Shown here: in pieces, positions 5,390-56,254 of the stretch | How positions within the stretch are numbered: position 1 is the stretch's first letter | How the letters are laid out: each line of letters opens with the position of its first letter | Assembly: GCA_016928115.1 (NCBI GenBank) | Contig: JAFGLI010000006.1 | Location: 1 to 59,494 of the forward strand | Source of the DNA: Candidatus Woesearchaeota archaeon | Lineage (GTDB): Archaea; Nanobdellota; Nanobdellia; Woesearchaeales; UBA9642 | Length of the DNA: 59,494 nucleotides | Direction: 5' to 3' | Position numbers and translations under genes: made by a program | Notes under the pieces: model-generated | Database searches by the model: none | The model's input: only the letters and a program-made list of their open reading frames with translations | What the model was told of the DNA's origin: nothing

Positions 5390-5716
5390 TTAACCGAACA
5401 GAGCTCCTAAACCTTCAGCAGACTCTTCTTCTGATTTCTTTTCTTCTTCTTTCTTTTTCTCTTCTTTCTTTTCTGTGCCTTCTGCCTTTGGTCCTTCTTC
5501 GCCGCCTGCACTTGATGCTGGTGCAGCTGCTGCAGGAACTGCTGCTGCCTCTTTCAAAGCCTTTTCAATATCCACTCCGTTCAAAGCACTGACCAGGGCC
5601 TTAACTTTTGCATCATCCACCTTAACAGATGCAGCCTGAAGCACTTTCTTAACTGAACCTTCATCTATCTTCTGTCCAGCCTTGTGTAGTAACATTGCAG
5701 CATATATATATTCCAT
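5390..5716 (-). CDS. rpl12: Ribosomal stalk protein P1/L12
   Basis: MEYIYAAMLLH...EGLGALFG. Confidence 0.97.
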   Translation of the reverse strand: MEYIYAAMLLHKAGQKIDEGSVKKVLQAASVKVDDAKVKALVSALNGVDIEKALKEAAAVPAAAAPASSAGGEEGPKAEGTEKKEEKKKEEEKKSEEESAEGLGALFG

Positions 5717-5742: not shown

Positions 5743-6807
5743 TTATAATTTATTTTTTTTGTCCTCTTTTTTCTCTGGTTTTTCTTCTTTGATTTCCTCA
5801 GTTTTATCTGTTTTAAATTCTTCTGGTTCTTTTTTCTCTTCTTTAATAATTTCTTTAGGCTGTTCATTAACTTCTTCTTTTTTATCTTCAGCTTTCTCTT
5901 CTTTATTTTCTTCTGGTTTCTTGGTTTCACTGGTTGTTTCTTCAGGAACTTCAATTTTCAAATCAAGCAGGGAATTCAGGTTCACTGCCTGTGCATTGGC
6001 CTTTGACAGGATAATTCCTGTGGTTTTATCCGTAAGTATATTCTCATTCAACGCAAGATTTAAGGCCTCTGCATGGGCTTTTTGAAGCAGTATGTTTATT
6101 GTAATATCAGCAGGATAATTTATGCTCAATGCAAGTTTGAATGAATCCATTGCAGATTTAATAATATTATTATAATATTCCTGCTCATCTATATCAAGTA
6201 TGTCTTTTTCAAGTATTTTCCCGTCATCCCATACAGCCTTCAGGTTTAAGCCTATCTCCATCGGCTTTAAATCAAGCCTTTTTAAGATTCCTGCAACCTT
6301 ATCATTAACCGTTTCTCCTTCTTTTACAACAAGGCAGTCTTCTTTTATAACTAATTTTCCTGCATCCACACCTGTTTGTATTCCTATAGACCCCAATTCT
6401 CCTATTATTGGACCTGGAGCGAAACTCGTTGGTCCTTTTGGGACAACAATGTTATTAACTGCTTCCTGCCCTGCTTTTATAGGGGCCTTGGTCTTATTCT
6501 TTTTTATTATGCTGTATAAGCTGAAAGGGTCTTCTTTAGAAAACAAAACAGCAGTCAATCCATCCATATAATCCTCAAGCTTTTCAAGGTTATCTTTGTT
6601 TGTTTTTTCAATTGCTATCTTCATCAGCCTTCTTTTAGTCATTTTTATCAGGACATTGTGCTCTCTTAATTTCGCTCTTATATCCTGAAACTGCCTGGCA
6701 GGAAGGTTTCTTAAATCCAGTATACCTATGATAGGATAACTATTAAACAAATCTATAAACTCCTTCACTTTGTCCTTCTTATATTCCTGGATTTTTGGCT
6801 CTGTCAT
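5743..6807 (-). CDS. rplP0: Ribosomal protein P0/uL10 with charged C-terminal tail
   Basis: GPTSFAPGPIIGEL; position in the L1-L10-L12 operon. Confidence 0.96.
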   Translation of the reverse strand: MTEPKIQEYKKDKVKEFIDLFNSYPIIGILDLRNLPARQFQDIRAKLREHNVLIKMTKRRLMKIAIEKTNKDNLEKLEDYMDGLTAVLFSKEDPFSLYSIIKKNKTKAPIKAGQEAVNNIVVPKGPTSFAPGPIIGELGSIGIQTGVDAGKLVIKEDCLVVKEGETVNDKVAGILKRLDLKPMEIGLNLKAVWDDGKILEKDILDIDEQEYYNNIIKSAMDSFKLALSINYPADITINILLQKAHAEALNLALNENILTDKTTGIILSKANAQAVNLNSLLDLKIEVPEETTSETKKPEENKEEKAEDKKEEVNEQPKEIIKEEKKEPEEFKTDKTEEIKEEKPEKKEDKKNKL

Positions 6808-6814
6808 TTTATCA

Positions 6815-7468
6815 TCATATTAATTTTACGGGCTTGCTCATGGTAAACTTAAGCATAGCATTTTTTACATTGTTTTTTTCTTTTGGCAGGCTGTGGACTA
6901 TGGTGTTATAAGCGACTATTATATTATCAATTATATCATCATCTTTCATATCCTCCTTCCCGACCATAAGATGGACAACAGGATTTCTTTCCACTCTTAC
7001 AGCAAGGGTATGCTGTAGTTTATAGTATAATGCATCAAAATCAGTCTTGGGATTAATAACGCAGCCTATTTTAGGGTTAGGCATTTTATTCCTAGGCCCC
7101 AGAATCCTTCCGAAACTTGAAGCTACTTTAGCCATTATATTTGCCTGTGAAACAAAAAAATCATATTTTCCTGCTATTTTTTTAGCACTTCTCATATTTT
7201 CACTGTATTTATTGAATTCAGAAACCTCAATGACCTTATCAAAAACCTTTTTTGCCTTGCTGACAAGGTCCATATCGACAAAAGCGCAGACAGTCCTTTT
7301 TTTGCCTATAGTCTTATGTAAATTTATGAACAAATTGATCTTATGCTGTGGATTCTTAAAGTCTATATCCTGCAGATTTATAATTAATTCAACTGACTGC
7401 TTAAAGTTCCTTTTCTTGGAATCTTTTCTCAGCTTATCCAATACTTTTATGCATTTATTCTTGTCCAT
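6815..7468 (-). CDS. rpl1: Ribosomal protein uL1
   Basis: KRNFKQSVELIINL, GRILGPRNKMPNPK, KFTMSKP. Confidence 0.96.
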   Translation of the reverse strand: MDKNKCIKVLDKLRKDSKKRNFKQSVELIINLQDIDFKNPQHKINLFINLHKTIGKKRTVCAFVDMDLVSKAKKVFDKVIEVSEFNKYSENMRSAKKIAGKYDFFVSQANIMAKVASSFGRILGPRNKMPNPKIGCVINPKTDFDALYYKLQHTLAVRVERNPVVHLMVGKEDMKDDDIIDNIIVAYNTIVHSLPKEKNNVKNAMLKFTMSKPVKLI

Positions 7469-7475
7469 TTTGAAA

Positions 7476-7540
7476 GGGCCCTCCTACAAGAAATGTAGTA
7501 TGTCCTGTGCTCGAGAAAAGCACATGAACACATCGGGCAA
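7476..7540 (-). promoter_or_regulatory. Structured 5' leader of the L1-P0-P1 operon, probable L1-binding autoregulatory site
   Basis: Stems GCCC/GGGC, UGUGCU/AGCACA and CUACA/UGUAG; the SD GGAGG lies inside the fold. Confidence 0.6.
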
Positions 7541-7578
7541 AATCTTTTAAAGATTCTTAATTAACGGAATTTTGAAGG

Positions 7579-7594
7579 ATTTATAAAGGTTACG
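7579..7594 (-). promoter_or_regulatory. BRE-TATA promoter of the rpl1 operon
   Basis: CGTAACCTTTATAAAT on the minus strand; near-identical context at the rps19e promoter (about 13347-13375). Confidence 0.7.
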
Positions 7595-7730
7595 GAAATG
7601 CAAGCATTTCCTAACTTAAAAAATCTCTGATTTTTGTAAGTTACGGAATTTTGCGGGCAAAATTACGAACTTAGAAAATGCCTACATTTTCGTAAGTTAG
7701 GAATTATTTTATGTTTTCGTAAATTTTGGT
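7589..7730. repeat. Array of about 5 interlocking short inverted repeats
   Basis: gaaatgc-aa-gcatttc; aaaaatc-tct-gattttt; aattttgc-gg-gcaaaatt; gaaaatg-ccta-cattttc, joined by alternating AACTTA/TAAGTTA linkers. Confidence 0.85.
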
Positions 7731-7795: not shown

Positions 7796-7912
7796 GCCTA
7801 GGTCGCATAACCTGGTATTGCGCCAGCTTGGAAAGCTGGTCCCTCTGGGATTCCCGGAAACCTTTTAGGAAAATGTCTTAAGGGTTGGGAAATTCAAATC
7901 CGGGCCTAGGCG
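7796..7912 (+). tRNA. tRNA-Ser(GGA) with a 35-nt intron between positions 53 and 54
   Basis: Acceptor GCCTAGG/CCTAGGC plus discriminator G; anticodon arm CCAGC-TTGGAAA-GCTGG; long variable arm; T-arm CCCGG-TTCAAAT-CCGGG is restored by removing 7858-7892. Confidence 0.92.
7858..7892 (+). other. Non-canonical tRNA intron with relaxed bulge-helix-bulge motif
   Basis: Central 4-bp helix TCCC/GGGA, 3-nt bulges GG^A and AA^T with cuts after the second base, intron stem AACC.../...GGTT. Confidence 0.85.
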
Positions 7913-8019
7913 TTTTTCTTTATTTAAGGGCTTGACGAACGAAGTGAGGAAACCCTTGGTTTTAGTCAAGTTTTTAATGAAATGTCCAAAAACTTGCGGG
8001 CCTAGGCGTTTTTCTTTAT
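7901..8019 (+). repeat. 23-bp direct repeat of the tRNA 3' end flanking a 73-nt two-hairpin insert
   Basis: cgggcctaggcgtttttctttat at 7901-7923 and 7997-8019. Confidence 0.9.
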
Positions 8020-8079
8020 CAAAAATATAATGAATAATTCAGAAACAATCCTCAGAAAACAATACCAGAATTTTAGATA

Positions 8080-13334: not shown

Positions 13335-13368
13335 TTTATGTTCTCTGGAATTTTAAGGGGTTTAAAAA

Positions 13369-13431
13369 GGTTACGAAAATTCTTTAGAATTTTCTAACTT
13401 AGGAAATGTTTTCATTTTCGTAAATTATGGT
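13369..13431. repeat. Two-unit interlocking hairpin array abutting the rps19e promoter
   Basis: ggttacg-aaaattc-ttta-gaatttt-ctaactta-ggaaatg-tttt-cattttc-gtaaattatggt; same ends as 7589-7730. Confidence 0.8.
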
Positions 13432-43671: not shown

Positions 43672-43724
43672 ATCATGAAAATCAGAGATTTTCAGGATGC
43701 CAAAAATGTTCCATTTTTGAGCAT
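43672..43724. repeat. Two-unit hairpin array
   Basis: atca-tgaaaatc-aga-gattttca-ggatgcc-aaaaatg-ttc-cattttt-gagcat. Confidence 0.8.
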
Positions 43725-43767
43725 GTCCGTTAGGACTGAGGGGGAGTTCGATTAAATATAAAATTAA

Positions 43768-44025
43768 TCACTTTCTTTTCTTATTTTTAAGAAATCGTCT
43801 AATTAAATATACAGGAGATATTATGATTAATGAAACAAAAAATGAAATTATAATGGGTACTATCATTTCTAATCCCTGCCAGTTTCCCCACATACCCACA
43901 TTAATTGATCCTTTGTAAAATATACCTAAGAATATAAAAAACCATAATAATATTATTAAAATTATATCTAAACGATTGTATGCTTTTTTTAGATATGTTT
44001 TTATTTCATTTAACATTTTAAACAT
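43768..44025 (-). CDS. Small two-TM membrane protein, cassette-like
   Basis: 85 aa; bracketed by GGGGGAGTTC(43740-49)/GAACTCCCCC(44080-89). Confidence 0.6.
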   Translation of the reverse strand: MFKMLNEIKTYLKKAYNRLDIILIILLWFFIFLGIFYKGSINVGMWGNWQGLEMIVPIIISFFVSLIIISPVYLIRRFLKNKKRK

Positions 44026-44100
44026 TTAGTATTCATTGATTATAAATTTTTTGGTAAAAATGGAATAAATTAAACATTTGAACTCCCCCCCTTTGCTTCT

Positions 44101-44538: not shown

Positions 44539-45351
44539 ATGGCAGTTGATGTAATTTATAATATGAAGAGGGAAATGCTTAGGAGAAAGCTATCGCCAAA
44601 AACAGTAAAGACATATCTTCAGTATGTTAAGTTATTTCTTTTAGCTAATAAAGATAAGGCTCCAAAAGAGTTCTCAAAAAAAGATGTTCGTGAATTTCTT
44701 TATAAGATGGAAGAGAAAAATGTTTCGGGAAGCACGCTTAATGTTGCACATAATGCACTAAGATTTATGATGATTGATGTATTGCATAAAGCGTGCTATC
44801 TAAAGATTCGCTATGCTAAAACACCTGTCCGAAAACCAGAATATTTAACAAAAAAAGAAATTAAAAAGATTTTAAATGTAATTACCAATAAAAAACACAA
44901 ACTCCTTGTTTCTCTGATGTACGGAGCAGGCCTTAGAGTAGGAGAAGTGACAAGATTAAAAGTATCTGATTTTTCATTTGAAGAAAATATTGGTTGGGTG
45001 AGAGCTGGAAAGGGGAACAAAGACAGGCCTTTTATTATTCCTCAAAAAATCAAAGAAGAAATAAAAAAACTATGTGAACAAGAAAGAACATGGCTTTTTC
45101 CGGGAAGAAAAGGGGCACTGACTATTAAATCAGTACAGGTAATGGTTGAAAAAGCCGGAAAGAAAGCAAAAATCAAAAAACACATTCATCCACACATGTT
45201 CAGGCACTCGTTTACAACACATTTGCTCGAATCTGGGATAGATGTAACATCAGTACAAAGTCTTTTAGGGCATATTAGACCAGAAACAACTCTTGGATAT
45301 TCACATACATTAAGACCGAAAATGATAGCGATAAAAAGCCCCCTAGACTAG
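44539..45351 (+). CDS. Tyrosine recombinase, Xer/IntI-like
   Basis: SPKTVKTY N-domain; YGAGLRVGE, GKGNKDR, HMFRHSF, LLGH, TTLGY; IntI-like C-terminus KSPLD; no obvious IntI-specific insertion. Confidence 0.93.
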   Translation: MAVDVIYNMKREMLRRKLSPKTVKTYLQYVKLFLLANKDKAPKEFSKKDVREFLYKMEEKNVSGSTLNVAHNALRFMMIDVLHKACYLKIRYAKTPVRKPEYLTKKEIKKILNVITNKKHKLLVSLMYGAGLRVGEVTRLKVSDFSFEENIGWVRAGKGNKDRPFIIPQKIKEEIKKLCEQERTWLFPGRKGALTIKSVQVMVEKAGKKAKIKKHIHPHMFRHSFTTHLLESGIDVTSVQSLLGHIRPETTLGYSHTLRPKMIAIKSPLD

Positions 45352-52177: not shown

Positions 52178-52231
52178 TGATAGTTTATTTATGTGGTTAT
52201 TTATAAATTTTGTTTTGGTCATTTAATGTTC

Positions 52232-52381
52232 TCTAAAAACACGAAAACATTTATACATGTAAAAATGAAACATTTTTGAGCATAAATATTTTCTAAAAAC
52301 ACGAAAACATTTATACATGTAAAAATCAGGAAAAAAGATTTTTGAGCATAAATATTTTCTAAAAACACGAAAACATTTATA
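52232..52381 (+). repeat. Three tandem copies of a BRE-TATA promoter segment separated by hairpin modules
   Basis: tctaaaaacacgaaaacatttata at 52232, 52292 and 52358 (periods 60 and 66). Confidence 0.92.
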
Positions 52382-52408
52382 TATATTAAAAATTAGATTA
52401 TAATTAAA

Positions 52409-53077
52409 ATGGCAGGACCTTACAGGGATTTGACAAGCAAGGAGATTCATGTCACAGAATATGAGATAGAGAATGAATCTTTTTTTCATCTTAAAAGCCT
52501 TTACAGAATGATATATAACTGGCTTATAGAGGAAAACTACCGTGACCCAAAAGACGGCGGAACCAAGTTTGAAAGGGTTTTTATGAAAAAAGTAAGCCCC
52601 ACAGGAAATGAAGAAATACATTGGTGGTGGAGAGCACAAAAAACTCCTGAAGGAGCAAACAAAGACTACTGGGCTTATTTGTTTAAGATACGCTGTCAAT
52701 TAATTGACCATAAAAAAGTGAAGCAAAAGATAAAAGGAAGAAATTATAAAATGGATACAGGCTCTTTCACAATATATTTCAATTCATATCTTATTCTTGA
52801 CAAAAACAAAGAATGGGAAAAACATTCCTTTTTAAAACACCTTGATAACATTTACCGTACAAGAATCATAAGAAAAAAAATACTTTATCACGTAAATGAA
52901 GTCTACAGGGAAAGCTACAGGCTGAACAATGCAATAAGAAAATTCTTTGAGATGCAGACTCCGTTTGAGGTTCCAAGGACATTCACTCCTGAAAGAGGAT
53001 ATGCATATGAAGAAGGACCTAATACATTACCTGAAAGCAAAGGCCCCGGAAAGGAATTCTTTGAAGCAAATAAATAG
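52409..53077 (+). CDS. Hypothetical protein, third paralogue of the 8080/8623 family
   Basis: FHLKSLYRMIYNWLIEENYRD, TGSFTIYFNSYLILD...WE. Confidence 0.75.
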   Translation: MAGPYRDLTSKEIHVTEYEIENESFFHLKSLYRMIYNWLIEENYRDPKDGGTKFERVFMKKVSPTGNEEIHWWWRAQKTPEGANKDYWAYLFKIRCQLIDHKKVKQKIKGRNYKMDTGSFTIYFNSYLILDKNKEWEKHSFLKHLDNIYRTRIIRKKILYHVNEVYRESYRLNNAIRKFFEMQTPFEVPRTFTPERGYAYEEGPNTLPESKGPGKEFFEANK

Positions 53078-54776: not shown

Positions 54777-55397
54777 ATGGGAGACCCAAAAAAAATCAGG
54801 AAAAAATACACAACCCCATCACACCCATGGCAGAGGTCTAATCTGGAGAATGAAGCCAGGCTTGTAAAAGAATACGGACTGATAAGAAAAAAAGAAGTAT
54901 GGAAAGTTAATTCCCTGCTTAAGAAAATCAAGGCAGAAGTCAAAGAAATCGCTGCTTCTGAAGGAGAAAAGGCAGAGAAAGACAAAAACCTGCTACTCAA
55001 AAAACTTAAAAGCTGGGGACTGTTAAAGCCTGAACAGGGAATTGATGATGTGCTTGTTCTCGAAACAAAGGATTTAATGGAAAGACGTTTACAGACACTG
55101 GTTTTCAAAAAAGGAATGTCCAAATCAATAGACCAAGCAAGACAATTCATAGTCCACGGCCATATTAAAGTCGGGGACAAAAAAATGAATACTCCGTCAT
55201 ACATGGTAAAAACAGGGGAAGAAGACCTGATTGGATTTATTGGAAGATCATCACTATCAGACCCTGAGCATCCTGAAAGAGTTTCAAAGAAAGAGAAAAA
55301 ACTAATTAAAGAGGAGCCAAAGGCAGAAGAAAAATCAACTGAAGAAAATAAAGACGAAAAAACTGAAGATAAAAAACAAGAGAGCAATGAAAAATGA
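54777..55397 (+). CDS. rps4: Ribosomal protein uS4
   Basis: MGDPKK.RKKY.TP.HPW, ERRLQT, QARQFIVHGHI. Confidence 0.97.
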   Translation: MGDPKKIRKKYTTPSHPWQRSNLENEARLVKEYGLIRKKEVWKVNSLLKKIKAEVKEIAASEGEKAEKDKNLLLKKLKSWGLLKPEQGIDDVLVLETKDLMERRLQTLVFKKGMSKSIDQARQFIVHGHIKVGDKKMNTPSYMVKTGEEDLIGFIGRSSLSDPEHPERVSKKEKKLIKEEPKAEEKSTEENKDEKTEDKKQESNEK

Positions 55398-56254
55398 TAG
55401 AAAGGGATTTTGTAAAACAAAAAATAAAGGAATTTGAAATCAAGGAATATATACAGAGCAATCTGTCAAATGTAGGCTTAAGGAATGTTGAGATGAAAAG
55501 AACCCCTCTGGGAATCAAGCTGGTTATAAGCGCATCAAAACCTGGATTGGTTGTAGGCAAAAAAGGCTCAAACATCAACAAGCTTACAGAAGACCTAAAA
55601 GTCAAATTTGAGCTTGAAAATCCACAGATTGAACTTGAGGAAGTTGAAAAGCCCTATTCATACGCAACAATTGTTGCTGAAGAAATAGTTAATTCACTGG
55701 AAAGATTCGGGTCAAACAATTTCAAGAGTATAGGATATAATGTAATGGAAAAAGTCATGAGGGAAGGAGATGCCCTGGGAGTTGAGATACTTATCTCAGG
55801 AAAAGTTCCAAGTGCAAGAGCAAGAGTCTGGAGATTTTACAAAGGATACCTGAAAAAATGCGGAAATATCGCATACAGGGAAGTGGATAAGTCATTCCAG
55901 GTTGCAAAACTGAAAACAGGCACCATAGGCATAAAAGTGAGCATAATGAAAAAAGAAACCAAACTGCCTGATGATATCATACTAAAAAAAGAAGATATGG
56001 AAACAGAATTCTCTGAAGTTGAAAAAGATAAAGAATTAGAAGAAAAAAAGGAACAAATAGAAAAAGATGAAATAAAAGAAGATAAAAAACCTGAAGAAAA
56101 GACTGAAAAAGAGAAAAAGAAAACTAAAAAGAAAAAAGACAGCAAGACAAAAAAAGCTGGGAAAAAAGATGATGAAAAAGCCAAAACAAAGAAAAAGACT
56201 GAAAAATCATCTGAAAAGAAAAAAACAACAAAGAAGAAAGGTAATAAAAAATGA
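55394..56254 (+). CDS. rps3: Ribosomal protein uS3 with long charged tail
   Basis: [38 protein letters not shown]. Confidence 0.95.

Follow-up and report, generated by a model that had tools for sequence, protein, structure and literature searches.

Palindromic two-hairpin repeats stacked against TATA boxes in an archaeal genus behave like a small mobile repeat copying a promoter signal

The window studied here is a complete contig (C13) of 59,494 nt from the genome of a Candidatus Woesearchaeota archaeon (G000), and it carries two arrays of short palindromic units, at 7589-7730 and 13369-13431, that abut the TATA boxes of ribosomal-protein genes. Within the arrays two constant palindromic linkers alternate between palindromic cores that vary, and arrays of the same kind recur at other loci of this genome and in a sister species. 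Judged by comparison of filled and empty promoters, the arrays behave like a small mobile repeat that copies a promoter signal. The explanation that we rate somewhat above an even chance is a genus-specific, non-coding DNA repeat akin to bacterial interspersed mosaic elements (BIMEs) and transposable elements of the miniature inverted-repeat type (MITEs), whose two-hairpin module docks between the B recognition element (BRE) and the TATA box and imitates the BRE.

The genome comprises 774 kb in 23 contigs, with 33% G+C and 91.5% completeness. Its archaeal markers include an archaeal signal recognition particle RNA and genes for topoisomerase VI, Hjc, FttA, the tRNA-splicing endonuclease and archaeal ribosomal proteins. 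Comparisons were made with one congener, a sister species (G001) whose EF-1alpha is 94% identical and whose flanking DNA is 83-91% identical, and with a third genome (G041).

Array architecture

Two constant palindromic linkers, CGTAA-C-TTACG (the C-linker) and CTAA-G-TTAG (or TTCG; the G-linker), join the variable palindromic cores, and their consensus words are ..TT.CGTAACTTACgaAAA and TTTtcTAAGTTaGgAAtTtt. C- and G-linker centres alternate strictly in all nine multi-unit arrays of G000, at a spacing of 25-33 bp plus a single 17-bp unit. An earlier note on the window had described the alternation as one linker in two orientations, with inverted copies of the flank; the alternation holds, but the linkers are two different palindromes rather than mirror copies. 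The "bulged base" of the array hairpins is the extra G and C of the CGTAA-C-TTACG linker. Cores following a C-linker are of an A-run type (GAAAAAC...) in units of 25-27 bp, with a few longer, and cores following a G-linker are of a GGAATTT type in units of mostly 27-33 bp. Because two linkers and two core classes alternate, the true period is a two-hairpin module of ~50-56 bp, which runs in the order TTACG, A-run core, CTAA-G-TTAG, GGAATTT-type core, CGTAA and has the inverted ends TTACGRAAA and TTTYCGTAA. Some cores recur, GGAAACAcagagcGTTTCC in five arrays and GGAATTTTGC-ss-GCAAAATTCC in six, at differing positions and in both loop orientations. No open reading frames (ORFs) lie between the units, and Tandem Repeats Finder does not report the arrays, since their cores differ.

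Read along the minus strand from 7730 to 7580, with the promoter to the right, the first array consists of ACCAAAAT, five hairpin units, CCGTAAC, C and TTTATAAA. Its features are as follows.

6815-7468, 5743-6807 and 5390-5716, minus strand: genes matching the Pfam families Ribosomal_L1, L10 and 60s acidic
7580..7587, minus strand: TATA box TTTATAAA of the L1-L10-L12 operon promoter, from the sequence; the same box is conserved in G001
7588..7595, minus strand: terminal half C-linker CCGTAACC, taking the place of the BRE immediately next to the TATA box, from the sequence
7589..7615: unit 1, promoter-proximal, GGAAATGC-tt-GCATTTCC, between two linker centres; 8 consecutive pairs, unit detector
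7615..7640: unit 2, AAAAATC-aga-GATTTTT; pairing, unit detector
7640..7670: unit 3, G(T)AATTTTGC-cc-GCAAAATTCC; pairing
7670..7696: unit 4, GAAAATG-tagg-CATTTTC; pairing, unit detector
7696..7722: unit 5, far end, degenerate, ending in TTTTCGTAA; from the sequence, unpaired in the computed fold
7723..7730, minus strand: former BRE ACCAAAAT at the far end of the array, from the empty/filled comparison; this word sits directly on the TATA box in G001

The core of unit 2 is repeated in the GTPase array of G000 and differs by one arm base (GATTTTC) in the EF-1alpha array of G001, while the core type of unit 3 is found in five further arrays with the loop cc or gg. The second array, read on the minus strand from 13431 to 13361, consists of ACCATAAT, two units, CGTAAC, C and TTTTTAAA.

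13361..13368, minus strand: TATA box TTTTTAAA in the promoter of S19e-L31e, followed after 28 nt by the ATG (13334); sequence, Pfam
13369..13376, minus strand: terminal half C-linker in the BRE position (CGTAACC), from the sequence
13370..13398: unit 1, GAAAATTC-taaa-GAATTTTC; pairing, fold, unit detector
13398..13423: unit 2, far end, GGAAATG-tttt-CATTTTC, ending in TTTTCGTAA; sequence, fold
13424..13431, minus strand: flank ACCATAAT, a far-end junction of the same kind, conserved in G001, which has four units there

The earlier description of these two arrays stands in most of its detail: both are built of 25-33 bp units with paired stems, loops of varying length and sequence and one unpaired base beside one linker, both start at CGTAAC directly on the TATA box of a ribosomal-protein gene (L1 and S19e), and both end in TTTTCGTAAATT(T/A)TGGT (7714-7730 and 13415-13431). 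The common ending TTTTCGTAAATT.TGGT results from the right half of a C-linker being joined to the old BRE region. Folded as single-stranded DNA, 7589-7730 scores z -5.61 against shuffles (0 of 200 as good) and 13369-13431 scores z -3.34 (2 of 200 as good).

The leaders of the two operons differ in length. That of the L1 operon (7469-7579, minus strand) spans ~85-110 nt, contains two small hairpins and is conserved in G001; an L1 autoregulatory site is known in other archaea, and this leader may be one. The S19e gene, unlike L1, starts ~28 nt after its TATA box.

The wider family proposed in the earlier note was narrowed by genome-wide searches. A unit detector found 51 units in G000 versus 11-28 in 10 Markov simulations, whereas the core AAAAT(C/G)-loop-(G/C)ATTTT, put forward as the mark of the family, occurs 24 times in the genome against 11-31 times in 20 simulations, which is chance. 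Five of the seven loci listed in the note (34899, 43672, 44101, 52255 and 54664) have no linkers, and none of them passes the unit detector; the 34899 site lies within coding sequence and the 52255 site is a 62-66-nt tandem repeat. The palindrome scan of the genome that the note had called for (stems of at least 7) returned 902 hairpins versus 794-829 in five simulations, a slight excess. A loose chain test, which asked for at least three alternating NAA(C/G)TT words, gave 8 chains versus 0-5 in 20 simulations; as it discriminates weakly, stricter patterns were used instead.

Pairing within units

We assessed pairing in 60 units, with 50 distinct cores, from nine arrays of G000 and six of G001. 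At least six consecutive Watson-Crick pairs, counted inward from the linker, are present in 50 of the 60, and the mean number of consecutive pairs is 6.9, compared with 2.7 when each arm is matched with that of another unit of its class. When the distinct units are aligned, pairing is found in 94.8% of 327 cells and in 95.5% of 200; shuffled pairing is 80.4% and 82.9%, and none of 500 shuffles reaches the observed value. Changes on both sides account for 50 and 25 cells, versus 17.3 and 7.8 in the shuffles, and pairing falls to 22-66% when the partner column is slid. Pairing is thus maintained despite sequence variation, as the note had proposed. G-U occurs in just 2 of 527 cells, and pairing that is so strictly Watson-Crick suits duplex symmetry, a cruciform or arm-from-arm copying better than an RNA helix. 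Single-stranded folding, for which the note had argued from this variation, is not required: duplex or cruciform DNA accommodates such strictly Watson-Crick pairing no less well.

Docking at the BRE/TATA junction

By the linker criterion G000 holds 13 loci with about 45 units in total, excluding a possible further array that is cut off by the end of contig C22. They comprise:

nine multi-unit arrays
one single-unit locus, at the L10e-S6e promoter
three loci near tRNA genes, with exactly two hairpins each and not at protein-gene promoters

In eleven of the 13 loci the final word is C(G/A)TAA(C/G), immediately adjoining a TATA-like box that is directed away from the array, and the unit nearest the promoter is 25-30 bp long. 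The genes downstream are mostly concerned with translation and proteostasis: L1-L10-L12, S19e-L31e, S2, EF-1alpha-S10, EF-1beta, L10e-S6e, Pop5-proteasome alpha-SBDS, GTPase-OapB, DUF655, two small ORFs with Cdc48, and one tRNA. Across the genome, CGAAAA, CGAAAC and CAAAAA are common words preceding TATA-like boxes, and CATAAC and AGTAAC also precede TATA boxes that lack an array, so that the half-linker is a plausible BRE.

Filled and empty versions of a promoter define the junctions:

L1, empty (G001): CCAAAAT-A-TTTATAAA
L1, filled (G000): CCAAAAT-(TTACGAAAAC ... TTTCCGTAAC)-C-TTTATAAA, the insert being TTACG...CCGTAAC
RHH-HIT, empty (G000): CCAAAAC-A-TTTAAATAC
RHH-HIT, filled (G001): CCAAAAC-(TTACGG ... 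TTCGTAAC)-C-TTTAAATAC
Sec61beta-NAC, empty (G000): AATCAAAAA-TTTTTTAAA
Sec61beta-NAC, filled (G001): AATCAAAAA-(TTAC...CCATAAC)-TTTTTTAAA, with CCATAAC on the TATA box
Pop5: CCAAAC in the empty version; CCGTAAC at both array ends in the filled version

As these junctions read, the array sits exactly between an ordinary BRE and its TATA box, and its last half-linker replaces the old BRE. Three filled sites keep the old BRE at the far end of the array.

Turnover between species and the two-hairpin step

Eleven orthologous promoters were compared between G000 and G001, and every empty site was read through continuous sequence; the Cdc48-operon and L10e-S6e arrays of G000 lie outside this comparison. 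The unit counts are:

L1: 5 in G000, 0 in G001
Pop5: 4 in G000, 0 in G001
DUF655: 7 in G000, 1 in G001
S19e: 2 in G000, 4 in G001
GTPase: 3 in G000, 4 in G001
EF-1alpha: 5 in G000, 4 in G001
S2: 6 in G000, 6 in G001
EF-1beta: 4 in G000, 4 in G001
LonB: 0 in G000, 3 in G001
RHH-HIT: 0 in G000, 4 in G001
Sec61beta-NAC: 0 in G000, 4 in G001

At five of these 11 promoters one species alone has an array, and the empty sites are an ordinary BRE on a TATA box. Where both species are filled, the linkers and outer flanks are the same and many cores are entirely different; the S19e and GTPase arrays have zero units in common. The same core types recur in other arrays and at other positions, with the loop in either orientation, and in the S2 array of G001 one unit is present twice, two units apart. 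The comparison of empty and filled sites and of unit numbers that the earlier note had suggested as a check thus did reveal differences between the species, and its idea of a propagating non-coding repeat is supported by them, by the varying array sizes and by the filled and empty paralogous sites within G000.

These paralogous sites belong to a tRNA-promoter cassette (..GGTTTTRGTSAA-G-TTTTTAATGAAATGTCC) that has three copies in G000, two empty and one filled. The window contains an empty one:

7955..7990, plus strand: empty target site in the tRNA-promoter cassette, ...GTCAA-G-TTTTTAATGAAATGTCC, from comparison of the three G000 copies

In the filled cassette, C21:27095-27146, 50 nt of the form TTAC-core-GAA-C-TTAG-core-CGTAA-G follow directly after the G of ..CAAG. 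The ends of this insert, TTAC(A)AAAA to TTTTTCGTAA, are terminal inverted repeats. One of its units is identical to a unit of the EF-1beta array of G001, and its second unit is much like one in the DUF655 array. The earlier note had envisaged events that each add one hairpin and an inverted copy of the flank; this cleanest of the insertions instead adds two hairpins together, ~50 nt from TTAC to CGTAA plus the centre base. At the junctions the two flanks have 1-3 nt in common, (A)AG or AAC, and these could equally be part of the element.

Distribution and candidate proteins

A linker-core-linker pattern, searched in 41 genomes, occurs 13 times in G000, eight times in G001 and once, in a chance-like form, in G031. 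The remaining 38 genomes have no match, and the reversed pattern used as a control is absent from G000 and G001. Among the loci listed by a scan of one genome per prokaryotic species, runs of units appeared solely in the loci that carry the G001 arrays and in G041. The single array of G041 has the same linkers in perfect tandem copies of ~54 nt, equal to two hairpins, at two contig ends (L103 and L125); no fusion of this array to a TATA box is visible, and the rest of that genome is at control level. A metagenome scan returned five contigs, four of which, as independent assemblies, reproduce arrays of the G001 type (GTPase, S19e and S2 promoters) with one loop difference, the fifth being a chance match in a bacterial gene. 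None of 28 EF-1alpha loci of other genera has adjacent units. Within these searches, the family is found only in the genus of G000 and G001, plus the one array of G041. A viral source was also considered, and the 37 matches in viral contigs are all single, none with a run of units.

The 91.5% complete genome has no match to Y1_Tnp (PF01797), DDE_Tnp_1 (PF01609), DDE_Tnp_4 (PF13359), the TnpB zinc ribbon (PF07282) or rve (PF00665), the five families that made up the transposase survey and for which control genomes matched in every search. The HUH nuclease that the earlier note had entertained as the mover therefore finds no Y1 transposase match in this genome. Its other candidate, an IntI-like recombinase at 44539-45351, is the only Phage_integrase (PF00589) match of G000; it has an N-terminal SAM-like domain and may be XerA-like, a putative label drawn from its domains and size. 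Of the 21 genomes searched for this family, 19 have it, and 17 of these are among the 19 that represent other genera. In relatives of other genera the linker pattern was not found, bar one chance-like match, so the recombinase family does not track the arrays.

Among DNA-binding proteins, a candidate reader of the linkers is a 107-residue protein with two ribbon-helix-helix (RHH) stretches in one chain (C14:43040-43363 in G000; L240:541-861), which leads an operon with HIT and PAPS-reductase genes and whose own promoter is arrayed in G001 (four units) and not in G000. Histone positioning was rejected, as G000 has no histone-fold (PF00808) match, and so was an extra linker-reading TFB, since the genome has one TFB gene, like most of the relatives searched. 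The sole Rfam match of the arrays is to a plant microRNA family, at chance level (27.6 bits against a threshold of 119).

Competing explanations

We propose that modules sit at AA-(C/G)-TT sites, of which the commonest is the BRE/TATA junction of strong archaeal promoters. That junction, ..AA(C/G)-TTT.., resembles a linker centre, ..TAA-(C/G)-TTA.., which would explain landing both there and inside existing arrays. Because a module ends in CGTAA plus the centre base, its insertion would place a new BRE-like word on the TATA box and displace the old BRE to the far end of the array, and with the BRE so replaced the promoter should stay usable. Arrays gain and lose units, and they exchange entire units with one another. 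Spread and resizing would be carried out by the recombination or repair machinery of the host, which would use the repeated linkers and the short stretch of matching sequence between BRE/TATA junctions, perhaps through template switching, gene conversion or slippage, rather than by a dedicated enzyme. Palindromy may be kept by hairpin or cruciform formation, or it may be a product of the way in which units are copied. The element itself would be largely selfish or neutral, and it might incidentally affect the strength or insulation of promoters.

Several points weigh against this explanation. The sequences are all metagenome assemblies, so that unit counts depend on assembly; collapse is unlikely, because the cores are distinct enough and the linkers measure just 9-11 nt. 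An empty site could represent precise loss through short junction repeats rather than the ancestral state. On the direction of change, no outgroup among the genomes searched has arrays, and although the majority of the tRNA cassettes are empty, there are just three copies. A clear target duplication is not evident, only 1-3 nt being shared at the junctions, and single-unit differences (GTPase, 3 versus 4) are seen as well, so the two-hairpin step is not the sole one. A novel or virus-encoded enzyme may exist, which is compatible with a five-family survey of a 91.5% complete genome. The bias towards translation and proteostasis genes, together with the invariable fusion to a TATA box, could also reflect function and not a preference for a target.

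This last point leads to the competitor that we take most seriously, while thinking it unlikely, namely that the arrays are working control DNA. A dimeric or cruciform-binding protein would occupy the linkers and their GGAAA/TTTCC shoulders and govern a translation and proteostasis regulon; on an equally tentative footing, the last half-site would overlap the BRE, and its occupancy would aid or block TFB and TBP. The TATA fusion at 11 of the 13 loci, always with the same half-site touching the box, the coherent gene set and the conservation of linkers but not of cores between species are all in keeping with such a role, as is an extra AAAATTCC word between the TATA box and the transcription start of several promoters. 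Against it, five of 11 orthologous promoters are arrayed in one species alone, and as their array-free versions retain an ordinary BRE and TATA box, the arrays are dispensable for these promoters. Linker centres lie 25-33 bp apart and hence keep no fixed helical phase, and a protein that reads the linkers leaves the palindromy of 50 different cores unexplained. No regulator was identified, in a genome with a single TFB gene and no histone-fold match in which no systematic search for genus-specific DNA-binding proteins was made. Control DNA and a mobile repeat can both be partly true. A related and rather improbable idea is that the module is targeted by the transcription start machinery itself: modules would land on BRE/TATA DNA that TBP and TFB have kinked, they would survive by virtue of an end that imitates the BRE, and stacks would tune or insulate the strongest promoters in a genome that has hardly any spare DNA, turning a selfish element into a promoter part. 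Yeast Ty3, which lands at TFIIIB-bound sites, offers an analogy for such promoter targeting.

Growth of each array in place, by slippage or fold-back copying of its own BRE region and with no movement between loci, seems quite improbable to us. It would draw on the resemblance of the BRE to half a linker, CC(G/A)(T/A)AAC, on the existence of tandem copies two units long (S2 of G001, and G041) and on the lack of a transposase match in the five families searched. However, cores that are identical or nearly so turn up in more than one array, where their position differs and the loop is found either way round, and the insert in the tRNA promoter carries one unit identical to a unit of the EF-1beta array (G001) and one close to a unit of the DUF655 array; units common to different arrays point to copying between loci. 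We give very little credence to a role at the level of RNA or transcription, in which the arrays would be multi-hairpin terminators or insulators that shield the promoter from an upstream gene end, or a structured upstream transcript. Seven of the nine multi-unit arrays do lie behind a gene of the same strand, and some of them begin immediately past its stop codon; the hairpins are stable, and many units end in T runs. Yet the other two, L1 and S2, lie between divergent promoters with no gene reading in; G-U in only 2 of 527 cells alongside changes on both sides is unusual for RNA helices; the constant linkers and exact TATA fusion are left unexplained; and nothing in Rfam matches above chance level, let alone at threshold.

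Relation to known systems

BIMEs consist of regularly spaced repetitive extragenic palindromic (REP) sequences in alternating orientation, with a copy number usually above 100 per genome, according to an excerpt of PMC2817692. REPs themselves are described, in part of PMC3733652, as conserved imperfect palindromes, 20-40 bp long and tagged at one end by GTAG or CGTC, for which roles in supercoiling, termination and mRNA stability have been proposed. The arrays resemble REP/BIME repeats and REP doublets forming hairpins (REPINs) in having short extragenic hairpin units, regular spacing and alternating linkers and unit types, as well as in that copy number varies per locus and closely related genomes differ. 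Unlike in REPs, where the hairpin itself is conserved, here the linkers are constant and the cores variable (50 distinct among 60 units), and units begin with TTAC or TTAG, with no GTAG/CGTC tag. There are ~45 units in 13 loci instead of more than 100 copies, the host is an archaeon, and the position is the BRE/TATA junction rather than the 3' ends of genes. The family PF01797, expected from a REP/RAYT system, has 0 matches in the 91.5% complete G000, though control genomes matched.

With MITEs the arrays share their non-coding nature, terminal inverted repeats and insertion polymorphism (5 of 11 orthologous promoters, 1 of 3 paralogous cassettes filled), and a high MITE density is noted for one Woesearchaeal genome in an excerpt of PMC11602168. 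They depart from MITEs in that the ~50-nt module stacks by landing in a target like its own linker, that no clear target duplication and, among the five families searched, no parent insertion sequence or transposase was found, and that the module end doubles as a promoter signal.

Palindromic operator arrays, such as the MetJ met-boxes and archaeal Lrp-type sites, lie upstream of regulons. As in these, palindromic boxes stand in varying number directly upstream of the core promoters of related genes or overlap them; unlike them, the arrays have no fixed spacing, orthologous promoters in the sister species lack the boxes, and the spacers are themselves freely evolving palindromes. Integron attC sites, with their IntI integrase, are the comparison system for stacked hairpins: there too, hairpins of variable sequence keep their structure and an unpaired base and are stacked beside a promoter. 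The arrays differ in having no gene cassettes and units of 25-33 bp, and the sole tyrosine recombinase family also occurs in array-free relatives.

Bacterial REP/BIME palindromic repeats are classic and still poorly understood, and an archaeal counterpart is apparently unpublished. The arrays show how selfish DNA could survive where little spare room exists: the repeat occupies the point at which an archaeal promoter is most sensitive, between BRE and TATA, and by putting its own end in place of the BRE it can stay in a 0.77-Mb genome and leave genes intact. The most highly expressed genes are under the control of these promoters, so arrays may alter the expression of the busiest genes. The same promoter with 0 to 7 units in sister species is a natural experiment on the role of DNA upstream of an archaeal core promoter. 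Arrays may also affect assembly, given the possible G000 array at a contig end and the G041 array at two. No description of archaeal arrays of this kind came up in full-text literature searches; the supplementary tables of PMC11602168 might list such elements.

Neighbouring features of the window

The divergent neighbour of the L1 array is a tRNA gene:

7796..7912, plus strand: tRNA gene of 117 nt, matching Rfam RF00005 at 32.5 bits (gathering score 29)

Its length indicates that it bears an intron. ARAGORN reports no tRNA in the whole window and misses 7796-7912 even with intron options. The last ~22 nt of this gene together with a T-run (GGGCCTAGGCGTTTTTCTTTAT) appear twice on the plus strand, at ~7902-7925 and 7998-8020. 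Between the two copies lies a cassette of ~70 nt that ends in a tRNA-type promoter and is also present at C14:18993, at C21:27146 and on several G001 contigs; in its paralogues the upstream part contains words resembling C and D boxes (TGATGA ... CTGA). The 7902-8020 segment is possibly a small mobile tRNA-promoter or small RNA cassette, or an integration scar.

A unit of 62-66 nt is repeated in tandem at 52225-52393 (2.7 copies, 88% matches). Every copy has a BRE/TATA-like word (CGAAAACATTTATACATG) and a small hairpin, and the repeats stand upstream of a 222-residue ORF (52409-53077) that has no Pfam match. This looks like a tandemly repeated promoter outside the linker family. Inverted repeats at 43730-44100 (GGGGGAGTTC.. 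and ..GAACTCCCCCC) flank an 85-residue ORF that has no Pfam match, and the region has no Rfam match; they lie within the 1-kb gap between the genes for a DEAD-box helicase and the putative XerA-like recombinase, with the hairpins at 43672 and 44101 just outside. Finally, in the S13-S4-S11-RpoD cluster a 286-residue ORF at 55394-56254 (plus strand) with KH_2 and Ribosomal_S3_C domains separates S4 from S11, an unusual setting for a gene resembling S3.

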